DNA of 41,316 bases from an uncultured delta proteobacterium (GTDB lineage: Bacteria; Desulfobacterota; Syntrophobacteria; BM002), in NCBI GenBank assembly GCA_963712115.1, contig CAVQGX010000065.1, positions 1-41,316 of the forward strand, given 5' to 3'. Made by a program: the position numbers and the translations under genes. Below the pieces are notes generated by a model. It was not told the origin of the DNA. It searched no databases and saw only the letters and a list, made by a program, of their open reading frames with translations. Each line of letters opens with the position of its first letter. Positions within the stretch are counted from its first letter, which is position 1. This document shows, piece by piece, positions 7,966-14,241 of this stretch.

Positions 7966-8160
7966 TAGCCCGGATGTTTCATGAAATGGTGTCACGAGAC
8001 CACGAAGATGGGCGTGCCACCGGGCAACCGTCCCGCGGTACCGCGGGATTGGTCCCGAGGCGTACCTGAATGGTGTGTCGCAGGGGCCTACACCTGAGGA
8101 CGCACGGAAGGACGGCCATATCCGTGGTCGCAGTAGGCGATTCATGGAACATCCGGGCTA
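7966..8160. mobile_element. MITE-like palindromic element, copy 3, overlapping the glgB stop codon
   Basis: TAGCCCGGATGTTTCATGAA...TTCATGGAACATCCGGGCTA. The terminal CTA at 8158-8160 is the TAG stop of glgB. Confidence 0.85.
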
Positions 8161-10071
8161 TCCTTCGTGTTTAAAGAACAATGCTCCCAGAGGTGGAAGG
8201 GTGAGGTTCAGAGAGTAAGGTCTGCCGTGGACTTCAATGGGCACAGCGTCCATGCCGCCAAAATTGCCGTGCCCGCTGCCGCCGAACTCTTCACCGTCAC
8301 TGTTGAGCAGTTCCCGCCAAAATCCGCCTTGGGGAACACCCACCTTGTAGCTATAGCGGGGTGTGGGCGTAAAGTTGAGAACTACCAGTACCATCTCCCG
8401 GGTGGACCGGGCCTTGCGAATGAGGCTGAGAGTACTCTGCTCAGTGTCGTTGCAATCGATCCATTCAAACCCTTGCGGCTCAAAGTCAAGTTCATGTAAT
8501 GCCTTTTCGCTGCGATAGCTTTGATTCAGATTTTGCACCCAGCGTTGTAGCCCGGCGTGGGATGGGAAGTCGAGCAAGCGCCAATCCAGAGCTTCTTCGT
8601 GATACCACTCCCGCCACTGACCGAATTCTCCTCCCATAAAGAGCAGCTTTTTTGCCGGCTGGGCGTACATGTACCCAAATAAGAGCCTGAGATTGGCAAA
8701 CTTCCGCCAAATATCTCCCGGCATCTTGCCGATGAGCGAGCCTTTACCGTGCACAACCTCATCGTGTGAGAGCGGCAGGACAAAGTTTTCGCTGAAGGCG
8801 TACAGAACTCGAAAGGTAAGTTGGTTATGATGATACTTTCTAAAAATGGGATCTTTGGACATGTAGGTCAAGGTGTCGTACATCCAACCCATATCCCATT
8901 TCATCCCGAAACCAAGGCCACCCACATAGGTAGGGCTAGAAACCATGGGCCATGCGGTTGATTCCTCAGCTATGGTCTGCACATCTGGATGGACGCGATA
9001 AACCTCCTCGTTGAGGCGGCGGAGAAAGGTAATGGCGTCCAGGTTTTCGCGGCCGCCGTAGACATTGGGAATCCACTCGCCTTCTTCCCGAGAATAGTCC
9101 AGATAGAGCATGGAAGCAACAGCGTCCACCCGCAAGCCGTCCGCGTGATAGGTATCCAGCCAGTAAAGAGCACTACTTATGAGGAAACTGCGGACCTCAG
9201 CCCGGCCATAGTTGAAGATGAAGCTCTTCCAATCCGGGTGGAATCCTTTTTGCGGATCCGCATGTTCATAAAGATGCGTCCCGTCAAAAAACCCGATGGA
9301 GTGCTCGTCTGTGGGGAAATGCGAGGGCACCCAATCCAGAATCACCCCAATGTCATGTTGATGCAGATAATCTATGAGATACATGAAATCCTGTGGTGTA
9401 CCGTATCGACTGGTGGGAGCGAAGAATCCTCTGACCTGATAACCCCAAGAGCCATAAAACGGGTGCTCCATCACCGGAAGGAACTGCACATGGGTGAAGG
9501 CCAACTTCTTTATATACTCTGCTAGCCTGGGGGCAAGCTCCCTGTAAGTCAGCCAACGATTGTCCTCTTCAACCGCCCTCATCCACGACCCTAGGTGAAG
9601 TTCGTAGATGGAAATGGGGGAGTCTGGCGAAATGCGGCTACCGCGGTTTGCCATCCACTCCTGGTCACCCCAGGTGTAGTCCAAGTCCCAGACTACGGAA
9701 GCGGTTTCCGGAGGCGGGTCATTGTAAAAGGCAAAGGGATCGGCCTTATCCACCCGATAGCCTTGATAACGAGAAACAACGTGATACTTGTAACGGGCAC
9801 CCTTGTCCACTCCAGGAATAAATCCTTCCCAGATTCCCGAGCGGCCTTTAGGTTGGAGGGAGTGATTATCCTTGCTCCAGCCGTTGAAGTCACCCATGAC
9901 AAAAACCTTCTCAGCATCGGGCGCCCAAACTGCAAAGTAAGTTCCCTGCAGACCCCCCTCTGAGATCACGTGTGATCCCAATTTTTCGTGTAAGCGGAAG
10001 TGACTTCCCTCGTTGAAAAGGTAGAGGTCTTGCTCTGTAAGCAAAGTAATCTTTTTATCAGAGTCTGCCAT
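8158..10071 (-). CDS. glgB: 1,4-alpha-glucan branching enzyme (GH13)
   Basis: FAVWAP, IYELHLGSW, GSWGYQ, DWVPSHF, LRVDAVASM, IAEEST and LSHDEVVHGK motifs; start ATG at 10071 (MADSDKK). Confidence 0.97.
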   Translation of the reverse strand: MADSDKKITLLTEQDLYLFNEGSHFRLHEKLGSHVISEGGLQGTYFAVWAPDAEKVFVMGDFNGWSKDNHSLQPKGRSGIWEGFIPGVDKGARYKYHVVSRYQGYRVDKADPFAFYNDPPPETASVVWDLDYTWGDQEWMANRGSRISPDSPISIYELHLGSWMRAVEEDNRWLTYRELAPRLAEYIKKLAFTHVQFLPVMEHPFYGSWGYQVRGFFAPTSRYGTPQDFMYLIDYLHQHDIGVILDWVPSHFPTDEHSIGFFDGTHLYEHADPQKGFHPDWKSFIFNYGRAEVRSFLISSALYWLDTYHADGLRVDAVASMLYLDYSREEGEWIPNVYGGRENLDAITFLRRLNEEVYRVHPDVQTIAEESTAWPMVSSPTYVGGLGFGMKWDMGWMYDTLTYMSKDPIFRKYHHNQLTFRVLYAFSENFVLPLSHDEVVHGKGSLIGKMPGDIWRKFANLRLLFGYMYAQPAKKLLFMGGEFGQWREWYHEEALDWRLLDFPSHAGLQRWVQNLNQSYRSEKALHELDFEPQGFEWIDCNDTEQSTLSLIRKARSTREMVLVVLNFTPTPRYSYKVGVPQGGFWRELLNSDGEEFGGSGHGNFGGMDAVPIEVHGRPYSLNLTLPPLGALFFKHEG

Positions 10072-10174
10072 TGTTTGATTCCCGCGCCTTTTGCCTCGCT
10101 GCAAGTCTGCGAAGGCTTAACATAACAGAGTTTGATTAGATTTAATAGTACTTACAACATACTTACAATCGTCA

Positions 10175-10350
10175 TAAGGGCATAGAGCATGGAGTGAGGA
10201 ATCAGGAGTCAGCTGGCAGCTGGCAACTGGCAGCAAGAAGACAGAGGACATTAGGAGCTCATAGCTGACAGCTCACAGCTCAAAGGAAAACCTAGTTCAG
10301 ACAATCAACGACTGGAACAATTTGAACGGTTTGCACGATTTGACATAACG
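10175..10350. repeat. Heptamer/nonamer tandem-repeat tract
   Basis: AGGGCAT-AGAGCAT, AGCTGGC-AGCTGGC-AACTGGC, AGCTCAT-AGCTGAC-AGCTCAC and (AACRRTTTG)-like units. Confidence 0.65.
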
Positions 10351-10442
10351 CCATGTGCTATGCTCTAGGCGATCTGACCTTACCCTGAGAAACAGGTTTT
10401 CTATAGTTAAATAAAAAAATGACAGAATGTTTTGGGCTTTTC

Positions 10443-10470
10443 TTGACATAGGTATTTGTTGTGATATACT
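10443..10470 (+). promoter_or_regulatory. sigma70 promoter of the cys leader/cysE-cysK transcript
   Basis: TTGACA (10443-10448), 16 bp spacer with extended -10 TG, TATACT (10465-10470). Confidence 0.75.
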
Positions 10471-10516
10471 TCATTACCCTACCAGCAAGGTATGATAATT
10501 GAAAGGGGGTGGTGAC

Positions 10517-10657
10517 GTGGATATGGTCATGTGTGATGACGACATGTGTTGTTGTTGCCCTGTATTGTTGAACGGTAGGGCTGGGGGCTTCTACCCGCAG
10601 GTGGTTTGGCTGACCAGATCCTGCATGGCACCATCCCAAAGCCTCCCCCAAGTCTGA
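10517..10657 (+). CDS. Poly-cysteine leader peptide (putative attenuator of cysE-cysK); not in the ORF track
   Basis: SD AAGGGGGTG (10503-10511), then GTG at 10517 (or ATG at 10523): MDMVMCDDDMCCCCPVLLNGRAGGFYPQVVWLTRSCMAPSQSLPQV*. Four consecutive Cys codons at 10547-10558, located between the promoter and cysE. Confidence 0.75.
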   Translation: MDMVMCDDDMCCCCPVLLNGRAGGFYPQVVWLTRSCMAPSQSLPQV

Positions 10658-10762
10658 TCGCCACGCAACGGGTTCCCGCCACCTTACCTCAATTAAGCAA
10701 CCAGGACTACACCAGCTTCAAAGTTTTTAGGCCTAGACGTACGTGCCTTGGGAAGGAAGATT

Positions 10763-11749
10763 ATGAGTCCAGTACAACAGTCTCACGATAAAGATACCGA
10801 AGCCTGCCGCCTGGCCTTCGAGGTTAGTACTAAAATTCGTGACCAGCTGCCACCAATTATCTCGGAGGTCGTTGCTTCCAGCCTTGATCCTGACCTATTC
10901 GCCCACGTGGACGCCGAACTTATTCCATCCACGGAACTGACCGTCGAGATCACTCAGCGAGCAAGACGATTGCTATTCCCAGGTTACTTCAACAGACAGG
11001 TATTGGATGCTAACCAGTTGGAATACGCCATTGGGGTTGAGGTTACCAGGCTTTTCGAGACCCTTTCTGAAGCAATCGCTTTGAGTATTCGACATGATTG
11101 CCAACGATACCAGTTGGTGTGCACTCATTGTCAAGAACGAGGCCAAAGGGAAGCGGCCCGCTTTCTGGAGCATCTACCGGAAATAAGAAGAATTCTGACA
11201 ACCGATGTGCAGGCTGCCTACGATGGTGATCCCGCCGCCAAGACCATTGATGAAGTGATAATAAGCTACCCAGGCTTACTGGCCACAACCATTCACCGGA
11301 TTGCTCACCAACTCTGGCTGCAGGAGATCCCTCTCTTGCCGAGAATGATGTCAGAGCATGGGCACAGCATCACCGGTATTGATATTCATCCGGGAGCAAC
11401 AATTGGTGAGAGTTTTTTTATTGACCACGGCACCGGGGTTGTCATCGGTGAGACCACAGAAATAGGCAAACGTGTGCGGATCTATCAAGGCGTGACCCTC
11501 GGCGCCCTCTCTTTGCCCAAGGAAGAGGTGGAACAACTGCGGCACGAAAAGAGGCATCCGACCATAGAGGACGATGTTACTATCTATGCCGGTGCTACCA
11601 TACTAGGGGGGGAGACAGTAATCGGGGCAGGCTCTGTAATAGGCGGCAGTGTCTGGATTACCTCTTCAGTTCCCTCAGGAACCAAAGTTTTTCTGGCCCC
11701 GCCTAAGCTGATTTATAAGAATGCAGACTCTGGAGCCAATGAGAGGTAA
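10763..11749 (+). CDS. cysE: Serine O-acetyltransferase (long EpsC-type)
   Basis: DVQAAYDGDPAA, GIDIHPGATIG, FFIDHGTGVVIGET, YQGVTLG and KRHPTIED; start ATG at 10763. Confidence 0.95.
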   Translation: MSPVQQSHDKDTEACRLAFEVSTKIRDQLPPIISEVVASSLDPDLFAHVDAELIPSTELTVEITQRARRLLFPGYFNRQVLDANQLEYAIGVEVTRLFETLSEAIALSIRHDCQRYQLVCTHCQERGQREAARFLEHLPEIRRILTTDVQAAYDGDPAAKTIDEVIISYPGLLATTIHRIAHQLWLQEIPLLPRMMSEHGHSITGIDIHPGATIGESFFIDHGTGVVIGETTEIGKRVRIYQGVTLGALSLPKEEVEQLRHEKRHPTIEDDVTIYAGATILGGETVIGAGSVIGGSVWITSSVPSGTKVFLAPPKLIYKNADSGANER

Positions 11750-11755
11750 AGGTCA

Positions 11756-12670
11756 ATGAAAATCAATACTGATATCGGTCATACCATTGGTCTCACCCCC
11801 CTGGTTCAGCTCAAAAATATCGCCAAGGGATTAGGCACAAAGATTTTGGCAAAGTTGGAGTTTTTCAACCCATTGGGCAGCGTCAAAGACCGTATCGGAC
11901 GGAGCATGATTGAGGCTGCAGAGCTCCAGGGCAAGCTGAAACCTGAGAGCGTGATCATAGAACCCACCAGTGGCAATACAGGCATCGCCCTGGCAATGAT
12001 TGCTGCCAGCAAGGGCTATCGGCTAATTCTCACCATGCCGGAGACCATGACCATCGAGAGGCGCAAATTACTAACGAGATTGGGGGCGGAACTGGTGCTT
12101 ACCCCTGGAAGTGAAGGCATCAAGGGTGCGATCAACAGAGCTGAGGAACTGGCAGCCCTAACTCCCCATGCCTTTATGCCAGACCAATTTTCCAATCCAG
12201 CCAACCCTGCCATCCATCGGGAGACCACCGCACTGGAGATCTGGAACGACACCGACGGCGAGGTTGACCTATTCGTGTCAGGGGTTGGTACCGGGGGGAC
12301 CATCACCGGCGTGGCCGAGGTGATCAAAGCCAAAAAGCCTTCTTTCAAAGCCATTGCAGTTGAACCGTCTGAATCACCGGTTCTCTCTGGAGGGCAACCC
12401 GGTCCGCACAGGATTCAAGGCATAGGTGCCGGCTTTGTGCCGGCGGTACTCCGAGTAGATCTAATCGACGAGATAATCCAGGTCAATGCTGACCTTGCTG
12501 AAGAAATGGCTGCAAGATTGGCAAGGGAAGAAGGCATCTTGGCCGGAATTTCAAGCGGCGCAGCCACTTGGGCTGCCTTGCAAGCAGCCAGGCGAGAAGA
12601 AAACAAAGGTAAGACTATCGTAGTTCTGCTCCCGAGCACGGGAGAGCGGTACATAAGTACATGGCCGTAG
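11756..12670 (+). CDS. cysK: Cysteine synthase A (O-acetylserine sulfhydrylase)
   Basis: NPLGSVKDR (PLP lysine), [15 protein letters not shown] and [10 protein letters not shown]. Confidence 0.96.
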
Positions 12671-12674
12671 ATGC

Positions 12675-12900
12675 TGGGCGCGAGGAGTAAGGTCCAAGGC
12701 GTACGGTCAACCTGAGTCACCACGCTCTGGGTCACTTATTGTCATTACGCTACGCTGTCATTCATGGTCATTTGTTGCAGACAACCAAAAAACATTGCAG
12801 CTAAACCACCTAATGACGGCGTAGCCACATGACGCGTAGCAAATGACGGCTCAGCCGAATGACCCAATGATAAATGTGAAATGATACATGCGAAATGATG
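12675..12900. repeat. Low-complexity repeat tract with opposed GTCATT / AATGAC arrays
   Basis: Three GTCATT units (12741-12772) face AATGAC/CATGAC units (12812-12870) interspersed with GGCGTAGCC-type mini-hairpins. Confidence 0.55.
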
Positions 12901-13011
12901 AAACGGAAGGGGGTGGTCTCATGTTATGGATAATGGTTCGCCCCGGCAGGGGTCTTAGAAATAGAAAGTCAAAGCGGCAGAGAATGAATATCGACAAGAG
13001 AGGAGAATTTC

Positions 13012-14241
13012 ATGGCAAAGACCATCCAGGAAATCAATGAGAAGATAAAAAGAGGTAAGGCGGTTGTTTACACCGCCGAAGAAATCATCTCCGTAGTCAA
13101 GAGTAAAGGCGCGAAGAAAGCAGCAGCAGAAGTTGATTTAGTCACAACCGGAACCTTCGCGCCCATGTGCTCCTCAGGGGCTTATTTCAATATTGGACAT
13201 TCCAACCCGCGGACTAAATTAGGCGGAGGCAGTGTCACTTTGAATGACATTCCAGTCTATGCCGGATTTGCTGCGGTGGATTTCTTCGTAGGCGCCACCG
13301 CCATACCTGACGACGACCCACGAAACAAGATCCATCCAGGTAAATTTCCTTACGGCGGCGGCCACCTGATTGAAGACTTGGTTGCAGGCAAGGATGCCAA
13401 ACTCATTGGCCGTGCCTACGGTACCGACTGTTATCCTCGTCGCAAGCTTGATACCTGGGTGAGGCTCGAGGACATGAACGAGGCAGTGCTGTTCAATATG
13501 CGAAACGGTTACCAAAACTACAACGTGGCGGTAAACCTGTCTGACCGTATGATCTATACCTACATGGGGGTACTCCACCCCAAACTACGTAACGCCACCT
13601 ACTGCAGCGCAGGGCAACTGAGTCCTCTGCTCAATGATCCACTTTACCGCACTATTGGGATAGGAACACGTATATTCCTTGGTGGTGGTATTGGCTATGT
13701 GGTGGATCGGGGAACCCAGCACAACCCGGACGTACCTCGCACCGACGCGGGAGTGCCTCGCATGGGAGCCGGGACCCTGGCAGTTATGGGTGATTTGAAG
13801 CAGATGAGCCATCGCTGGCTGCGCGGTGCCTCTTTTACCGGCTATGGTGTCACCCTGGCCGTGGGAATTGGCATACCCATTCCCATTCTGGATGAGGAGA
13901 TGCTGAACTATACTGCAGTAACCGACAAAGACATAGTTGCCCAGGTTGTTGATTACAGCGAAGCATATCCCAACTGCATTCCGGGCAGCCTAGGCGAAGT
14001 CACCTATGCTCAGCTCAAGTCTGGCTCTATAACGGTAAAGAGCAAGAAAGTACCTACTGCCGGGCTGTCTTCTTATTCCAGGGCCAGGGAAGTTGCCAAC
14101 ACCCTGAAGGATTGGATTGCAGACGGCTCCTTCCTCCTTAGCGAACCCGTGGCTCCCATGCCGTCGGTGGATTCGGGAATCAAATTCAAACCCCTTCAGG
14201 AGAGACCAATCTTCAACAACGCCCGGGTGGCGGTGGATTAA
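13012..14241 (+). CDS. Homocysteine biosynthesis protein (DUF39; L-aspartate semialdehyde sulfurtransferase, MA1821/MJ0100 family), no CBS extension
   Basis: KTIQEINEKIKRGKAVV, VDLVTTGTFAPMCSSG, GTDCYPR, RNGYQNY and LSPLLNDP..RTIGIGTRIFLGG; AGGAG RBS. Confidence 0.9.
   Translation: MAKTIQEINEKIKRGKAVVYTAEEIISVVKSKGAKKAAAEVDLVTTGTFAPMCSSGAYFNIGHSNPRTKLGGGSVTLNDIPVYAGFAAVDFFVGATAIPDDDPRNKIHPGKFPYGGGHLIEDLVAGKDAKLIGRAYGTDCYPRRKLDTWVRLEDMNEAVLFNMRNGYQNYNVAVNLSDRMIYTYMGVLHPKLRNATYCSAGQLSPLLNDPLYRTIGIGTRIFLGGGIGYVVDRGTQHNPDVPRTDAGVPRMGAGTLAVMGDLKQMSHRWLRGASFTGYGVTLAVGIGIPIPILDEEMLNYTAVTDKDIVAQVVDYSEAYPNCIPGSLGEVTYAQLKSGSITVKSKKVPTAGLSSYSRAREVANTLKDWIADGSFLLSEPVAPMPSVDSGIKFKPLQERPIFNNARVAVD

Follow-up and report, generated by a model that had tools for sequence, protein, structure and literature searches.

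We analysed a 41,316-nt stretch of DNA from an uncultured delta proteobacterium (hereafter the window, in which all positions are counted) and focused on a short open reading frame (ORF), the cys leader, which carries a run of cysteine codons near its start and lies between a near-consensus promoter and the genes cysE and cysK. The ORF is conserved at this place in the lineage, and its first codons vary as those of a coding sequence do. With somewhat better than even confidence, we read it as a translated, cysteine-sensing and perhaps also methionine-sensing cis-regulator of cysE-cysK, which are presumed to be the genes under its control.

A cysteine-rich leader ORF upstream of cysE

The earlier note on this DNA, made from the letters alone, had described a near-consensus sigma70 promoter, a strong Shine-Dalgarno (SD) sequence and a 46-codon ORF at 10517-10657 ending 105 nt before cysE, and all three were indeed found as described. 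The promoter matches the consensus at 11 of 12 positions, and the purine-rich extended SD at 10502-10513 is complementary over 12 positions to the 16S rRNA tail, which was read from the window's own genome (G000:C2). Three promoter-like sites were observed in 10000-11000, compared with 1.4 ± 1.3 in shuffled sequences, and the alignment showed that the -35 hexamer and a TATACT/TATAAT-like -10 are kept in every relative with a long enough contig. A promoter that is both near consensus and conserved fits control after initiation, and the transcript probably starts near 10476-10478. The GTG start codon lies seven bases past the GGGGG core of the SD and three past its last base; 46 nt, with the 12-nt SD between them, separate the end of the -10 element from the start codon, and the mRNA is not leaderless. 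The SD is almost invariant among the 38 distinct DNA versions of the leader that were collected from genomes and metagenomes. Its 10-mer AGGGGGTGGT occurs 17 times in the genome, and these occurrences include both copies of the cys leader and the C65 copy of a second leader at 12907, both of which are described below.

The N-terminus of the leader peptide reads V(fM)-D-M-V-M-C-D-D-D-M-C-C-C-C. Provided that GTG is read as formylmethionine (fM), nine of these first 14 residues are thus Met or Cys, with four Cys codons in a row, just as had been counted before. Five of the 14 codons specify Cys, whose share is 1.0% of codons in the long ORFs of the genome. The Cys run, presumed to be the sensing site, is not rare in itself: the six frames of the 4.9-Mb genome contain 440 runs of at least three Cys codons, and 20 runs of at least four were counted in stop-to-stop frames of at most 120 codons, with both copies of the locus included. 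The leader therefore exceeds chance because it is conserved, and not by its Cys run alone. A genome-wide regulon of poly-Cys leaders was considered and rejected, since the other runs of at least four Cys codons lie inside longer genes or repeats, with one exception. This exception (G000:C36:13993; L053 2420-2551) is a 43-codon ORF with a strong AGGAGG SD and five Cys codons in a row after acidic residues (...DSDQDKCCCCCVKV...); the genes around it are of the LysM, FHA and caspase/TPR kinds, with no sulfur genes among them.

Conservation and distribution of the leader

A CysE search of 41 related genomes matched 26, and the DNA upstream of these orthologs was compared. Seventeen upstream regions, from the window's family-level group (f1) and one neighbouring family (f2), could be assessed, the locus L009 being cut by a contig end. 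The ORF was present in all 17, behind the same promoter and SD. The earlier note had proposed a check for Cys-run ORFs upstream of orthologous cysE genes; as a result of this check, an SD-led ORF with a Cys run was indeed found before cysE in 16 of the 17 genomes, and 35 of the 38 versions contain at least two consecutive Cys codons.

A motif scan of one genome per species (185,579 species) returned 22 hits. Thirteen of them are the cys leader, all in metagenome-assembled genomes titled Syntrophobacterales, Syntrophobacteria, Deltaproteobacteria, Desulfobacteraceae or Desulfobacterota, and the other nine are unrelated and lie mostly within long reading frames. The motif scan of metagenome contigs gave 57 hits with 28 further leader copies; the other 29 were rejected, such as MEMVMRDDEMR, which is the C-terminus of a longer protein. 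The leader was not seen outside the lineage in the species genomes, in the metagenome contigs or in the cysE upstream regions of families f5 and f6 of the same class. The 24 upstream regions from f5 and f6 contained no Cys-run ORF, including that of G049, whose CysE is 77% identical to that of the window. In family f6 (L018-L021, L055, L057 and others), a cysteine-desulfurase-like gene precedes cysE with no leader, the frames upstream of cysE read ...SSGSACTSGSLQPSHVLRAMG..., and the pathway is organised differently.

Of the 38 versions, 25 have a Cys run of four codons, 2 have five and 2 have three, giving 29 with at least three; the run is down to two codons in 6 versions and to one in 2, and a single version has none. 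The Met codons 3, 5 and 10 are invariant in all 38, and the acidic codons 7-9 are kept in all versions but one (L003, with Cys at codon 8). The reduced-run versions form one sublineage (L094, L103, L104, L112, L115, L132, L141 and L013), which has lost the first start codon and reads M-V-M-S-E-(E/D)-(E/D)-M-S-C/R-C/R-R/K-..., the Cys run having shrunk to SCCR, SCRR, SCRS or SRRR. This sublineage retains the ORF length, the Met and acidic codons, the SD, the internal anti-SD block described below and the place before cysE, which speaks against the Cys run as the sole functional part and would allow for Met sensing or a function of the N-terminal peptide.

Evidence for translation

From comparative signs, we infer that the leader ORF is translated. 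Pairwise diversity over codons 1-15 was 0.124 at first, 0.072 at second and 0.256 at third codon positions, which is a coding-type pattern. From codon 16 to the end, the corresponding values were 0.446, 0.389 and 0.384, close to neutral, and this equal divergence at the three positions suggests that the peptide sequence there is not under selection. Despite the near-neutral distal part, every one of the 38 versions has an open frame of 45-51 codons, and in the 16 species compared frame 0 is free of stop codons, whereas the other two frames hold 25 and 30. Most versions begin with GTG and L004 with ATG, the length of the Cys run varies by in-frame 3-nt insertions and deletions, and TGT and TGC interchange. 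An antisense gene, the 97-codon minus-strand ORF at 10358-10651, was rejected because relatives do not keep its frame open.

A search of 5.8 billion proteins yielded a single match, an unnamed hypothetical protein. Metatranscriptome contigs from four studies cover the leader; three bridge it to cysE, and two short contigs end at 10733 and 10781. Since these contigs are assembled, come from close relatives and may reflect DNA carry-over, they are at most compatible with translation.

RNA features of the leader

We found no intrinsic terminator on the plus strand between 10560 and 10762. The sole terminator-like hit is a G-U-rich hairpin between the acidic and Cys codons inside the ORF (10533-10558), and a short U run at 10724-10728 is not conserved. 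Neither the consensus folds nor the single-sequence folds contained a mutually exclusive antiterminator/terminator hairpin pair. Rfam 15 gave no match at the gathering score in the whole window, and around the leader (9800-11200) it gave chance-level hits only, at E up to 10.

The best partner of the SD lies within the ORF itself, in a block that resembles the 16S tail (the anti-SD block, CACCATCCC; Table 1). In 13 of the 16 species, the best pairing is with this block located 33 nt upstream of the end of the ORF (-17.7 to -21.3 kcal/mol); in L012, L015 and L005, the same block is best at a slightly shifted offset (-31, -31 and -47, respectively), and L016 alone differs. Over the 38 sequences, 94.4% of the SD/anti-SD cells are paired, compared with 40-63% when the partner is slid. 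RNAalifold, unaided, recovered six of the long-range pairs between the two, and all changes in the anti-SD block are transitions that preserve pairing.

The 5' half of the leader is G-rich (its first 78 nt average 38% G and 15% C, a skew seen in each of the 16 species), and the last 45 nt of the ORF together with 65 nt of the spacer form a C-rich, G-poor tract, which we regard as a candidate Rho loading (rut) site. The C-minus-G value of this tract at 10613-10722 ranks among the highest 0.18% of all 110-nt windows genome-wide. The excess was found in 16 of 16 species (mean C 37%, G 17% over the 110 nt), the sequence itself not being conserved, and about half of the tract is predicted to be unpaired. 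The genome encodes rho (G000:C31; TIGR00767, 707.9 bits, above the cut-off).

Smaller hairpins were also predicted. The RNAalifold consensus of the 38 sequences contains a start-codon hairpin (columns 15-19 with 29-33), in which one-sided A/G changes preserve pairing and double changes number zero. The acidic/Cys hairpin is predicted in most species, with z values from -1.8 to +1.6 that are no better than those of shuffles. Where the Cys run is gone, the acidic codons GAC GAC have become GAA/GAG GAG and a new downstream strand, TCTCCTC or TCTCTTC, has appeared, so that this hairpin is kept in the versions with no Cys run. A further hairpin after the Cys run keeps its pairing, with covariation no better than in shuffles.

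A proposed mechanism and the points against it

In the reading that we favour, the constitutive-looking promoter would give a transcript whose first 160 nt hold the very strong ribosome site and the 46-codon ORF. The sensor would be the ribosome on codons 3-14, which comprise four to five consecutive Cys codons, one more Cys codon and three Met codons. With ample Cys-tRNA, and perhaps Met-tRNA, ribosomes would translate the whole ORF to its stop codon, which would keep the G-rich 5' half off the C-rich 3' part and leave the post-stop spacer bare; Rho would then load onto this spacer and end transcription ahead of cysE or in its early part. When charged tRNA is scarce, the ribosome would stall within the first 14 codons, with the distal ORF free of ribosomes. 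The SD would then be captured by the anti-SD block, a capture that would also halt further translation of the leader, and the G-rich segments would pair with the C-rich tract. With the tract paired, Rho would have no site and cysE-cysK would be transcribed. Stalling at Cys or Met codons, the part played by Rho and the direction in which the switch works are inferences, and that Rho is the effector is put forward tentatively, at clearly less than even confidence.

The effect of ribosome position was modelled by equilibrium folding in the 16 species, with the ribosome footprint masked. The post-stop tract was unpaired at 0.63 with the whole ORF masked and at 0.48 with a Cys-stalled ribosome, and the difference had the same direction in 16 of 16 species.

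Several points weigh against the proposed switch or parts of it. Ribosome stalling usually favours Rho and does not block it, and the proposed direction therefore depends on refolding of the RNA. The fold result for the post-stop tract is in part a trivial one, since RNA is always freed when its partner strands are masked. The whole leader folds no better than shuffled sequences (z = 0.48), RNAalifold found 0 compensatory pairs in the 38 sequences, and the SD/anti-SD pairing showed no significant covariation, with shuffles matching the observed values in 165 and 205 of 500 cases; the pairing-preserving changes do not amount to significant covariation because the 5' side consists of G and U and is almost invariant. 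All 38 versions come from one lineage and are hence not independent. Furthermore, D2, V4 and E/D7-9 are about as conserved as the Cys and Met residues, which is unusual in classical leaders and could point to a role of the peptide or of the RNA, and the reduction of the Cys run in 9 of 38 versions, with the rest kept, suggests that other features are also selected.

Alternative explanations

The main rival is translational attenuation of the mycobacterial type, in which a ribosome stalled on the Cys run would refold the RNA and free the cysE ribosome site with no involvement of Rho. The polycysteine short ORFs of mycobacteria are described as working in this manner and not via transcription termination (10.1101/834739). 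The lack of an intrinsic terminator before cysE and the small hairpins just upstream of the cysE SD in most species would suit this mechanism here, and masking a ribosome at the leader stop raised the accessibility of the cysE site from 0.43 to 0.52 on average. However, masking at the Cys run left the site unchanged (0.431 versus 0.432 unpaired), the species comparison revealed no consistent partner of the site in the leader, and some 200 nt separate the Cys run from the start of cysE. The equilibrium folds thus do not support translational attenuation at this locus, and we consider it unlikely.

We assign a similarly low likelihood to the possibility that the N-terminal peptide M-D-M-V-M-C-E-D-D-M is itself the sensor or effector, for instance an arrest peptide whose trigger is a small molecule or its own acidic stretch, or that the Met codons are the primary input. 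The constancy of Met 3, 5 and 10 in every version and of the acidic codons in all but L003, together with the loss of the Cys run in the sublineage, speaks for such a role, as does the second leader, which also has Met at codons 1 and 5 in a conserved peptide, MLWIM. Early acidic nascent chains are reported to be able to destabilise ribosomes (10.1101/2021.02.02.429294), and Rho-coupled leaders that sense ligands are listed for tnaC and speFL (PMC12360218). On the other hand, no similarity of the peptide to known arrest peptides was found, its sole protein match being the hypothetical protein above, and the start-codon hairpin accounts for some of the invariance at the N-terminus. Four to five codons for the end product in a row, as found in 27 of the 38 versions, are most simply understood as a sensor of tRNA charging.

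The product of the ORF is very unlikely to be a small functional protein rich in Cys and Met, such as a metal- or sulfur-binding peptide, that is co-expressed with cysE-cysK and has no regulatory role. A length of 46 codons, which is long for a leader and is conserved, and an N-terminus conserved at the peptide level would agree with such a protein, but the near-neutral codons from 16 to the end, the single unnamed match in the protein search and the dispensability of the Cys run in one sublineage would not, and three features have a regulatory look: the location of the ORF, with a strong promoter before it and cysE after it, the C-rich tract and the anti-SD block. Least likely of all is a structured RNA, riboswitch-like or protein-binding, with an incidental open frame: the 30 nt next to the SD are near-invariant even at synonymous sites, a related sequence opens the second leader and the acidic codons of the Cys-losing sublineage changed jointly with the new complementary strand, but there is no Rfam match even at E up to 10, the fold is no more stable than that of shuffles, with no compensatory pair, and start-codon swaps, in-frame indels, wobble variation and a frame open in all 38 versions are not expected of a non-coding RNA.

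Organisation of the locus and a second leader

The features of the locus are listed in Table 1. The leader-cysE spacer measures 103-132 nt in the 16 species. In all five relatives checked, cysK follows cysE and the order cysE-cysK-HcyBio-NIL/ferredoxin is kept, except that in L074 the HcyBio match covers the first 183 residues only and the NIL/ferredoxin gene was not found. The leader-cysE locus is present twice in the assembly, at G000:C30:2361-6344 and in the window at 9263-13246. The two copies are identical across cysE and 450 nt upstream of it and diverge just upstream of the second leader; they may stem from two strains binned together (contamination 5.99%) or from a genuine duplication.

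Table 1. Features of the cys leader and its surroundings in the window
Feature	Position	Strand	Description
Glycogen-branching enzyme gene	8158-10104	-	Upstream neighbour, opposite to the leader
Sigma-70-type promoter	10443-10470	+	TTGACA 10443-10448, 16-nt spacer with TG, TATACT 10465-10470
Extended SD	10502-10513	+	12 positions complementary (2 G-U) to the 16S rRNA 3' tail
Start-codon hairpin (predicted)	10512-10530	+	5 pairs, 10512-10516 with 10526-10530, start codon in the loop
Leader ORF	10517-10657	+	46 codons, GTG start, TGA stop; VDMVMCDDDMCCCC, then 32 poorly conserved codons
Internal Met codons	10523, 10529, 10544	+	Codons 3, 5 and 10
Acidic codons 7-9	10535-10543	+	Pairing with Cys codons possible (hairpin 10533-10558)
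Cys-codon run	10547-10558	+	TGT TGT TGT TGC (codons 11-14); extra Cys codon at 10532-10534
C-rich, G-poor tract	10613-10722	+	C 40%, G 15.5%; 45 nt at the 3' end of the ORF plus 65 nt of spacer
Anti-SD block	10629-10637	+	CACCATCCC, in the ORF, about 18 nt before the stop codon; pairs with SD 10506-10514
Untranslated spacer, leader stop to cysE	10658-10762	+	105 nt; cysE SD at 10750-10759
cysE	10763-11749	+	ATG start; Pfam Hexapep 1.6e-08
cysK	11756-12670	+	Pfam PALP 1.7e-75
Second leader-like ORF	12907-13040	+	SD 12907-12918; ATG 12921 to TGA 13040; 39 codons
Homocysteine-synthesis gene	start 13012	+	HcyBio 4.6e-150
NIL/ferredoxin gene	start 14403	+	Downstream of HcyBio

The second leader-like ORF has the same unusual 12-nt SD as the cys leader and overlaps the start of HcyBio. 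Its peptide follows the pattern MLWIM(V/A/E/D)xP..., the version in the window starting with MLWIMV, and it contains a hairpin at 12939-12955 whose stem shows paired changes between species. A pattern search located it in one f6 genome and in 12 family genomes, that of the window among them, and in each case it precedes HcyBio; the motif did not turn up in 400 further genomes of the phylum, and Rfam gave no hit for this leader. Swaps of its start codon (ATG/GTG) and of its Leu codon (CTA/TTA) point to its translation. No promoter-like or terminator-like site was present on the plus strand between cysK and the second leader. In the cysK-HcyBio spacer, at 12806-12900, we observed about eight AATGA(C/T)-like words with an irregular spacing of 8-16 nt, and a similar stretch is found in L076.

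The cys leader probably also regulates the homocysteine genes behind cysE-cysK. The earlier suggestion that the Met codons might add a second sulfur input gains from the retention of these codons in 38 of 38 versions, from the extension of the cluster into homocysteine genes and from the second leader, which fits it. A bolder reading, to which we give a small but real chance, holds that the two related leaders, with their common SD, together run the sulfur amino-acid cluster of the lineage, the cys leader integrating the charging of Met- and Cys-tRNA through a self-locking switch. In this switch, a mimic of the 16S tail within the ORF would capture the leader's SD after a stall, ending leader translation and hiding the Rho site. 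If true, this would be a bistable Rho-coupled design undescribed for any amino-acid operon, and the invariant acidic N-terminus would add a nascent-chain effect.

Relation to known attenuators

Like the trp, his, leu, thr and ilv attenuators of enterobacteria, the cys leader combines a strong promoter and a translated leader with codons for the end product. Its ORF is two to three times longer than classical enterobacterial leaders. It differs from the trp/his type in having no U-tract terminator hairpin and no clear terminator/antiterminator pair, and without a terminator it cannot be classed as a trp-type attenuator.

Poly-Cys leaders were predicted in 2005 in Mycobacterium, Propionibacterium and Bifidobacterium, where, in the account of Seliverstov et al. 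(PMC1262725), no terminator was seen and Rho was suggested. In 2020, leaderless polycysteine short ORFs of mycobacteria were reported to be cysteine sensors, with transcription termination excluded and a stalled ribosome freeing the ribosome site of the next gene (Canestrari et al., 10.1101/834739). As described there, these ORFs resemble the cys leader in placing a Cys-run short ORF before cysteine-metabolism genes with no obvious intrinsic terminator. In contrast to the mycobacterial ORFs, which are leaderless and are described as having the Cys run near the stop codon, the leader in the window has a very strong SD and 46 codons with the run at codons 11-14. It belongs to another phylum, shows no sequence similarity and no in-silico unmasking of the downstream ribosome site, and adds conserved Met and acidic codons, the anti-SD block and the C-rich tract. 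Not being leaderless, with no sequence similarity and with no unmasking seen in the equilibrium folds, it does not appear to be a member of the mycobacterial family.

By analogy, the cys leader would work most like the attenuators in which an upstream ORF governs Rho, with which it shares an upstream ORF, a C-rich untranslated spacer after it and the lack of an intrinsic terminator. According to Table 2 of a 2025 review (PMC12360218), translation of mgtL (for mgtA) and corL (for corA) restructures the leader and unmasks a Rut site, and the review describes the stalled ribosome as masking the Rut site in tnaC and speFL. The logic proposed for the cys leader, in which full translation exposes a Rho site, is that of mgtL and corL, with a putative Rho dependence. 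It would differ in its signal, which would be tRNA charging at a codon run and not Mg2+, Trp or ornithine, and pairing of a leader's own SD with an internal anti-SD block is absent from the systems as that review describes them.

In Naville and Gautheret 2010 (PMC2965389), cysteine appears only in a reference title. Our literature search, which covered few subscription journals, found no such leader described in Desulfobacterota or other Gram-negative anaerobes, in agreement with the earlier note, which knew of no case in Desulfobacterota. The principle of a leader ORF with a run of end-product codons is known, and the present build is undescribed within the literature searched. To our knowledge, cysteine is the one common amino acid for which demonstrations of ribosome-mediated attenuation are confined to mycobacteria.

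For annotation, the finding means that gene callers miss this leader, which has one related record among the 5.8 billion proteins. The cys leader offers a well-delimited and comparatively supported cysteine example with a different build, consisting of a strong SD, no terminator, an anti-SD block and a spacer that resembles a Rho site. It thus makes testable the activation of genes by an early-stalled ribosome with no intrinsic terminator.

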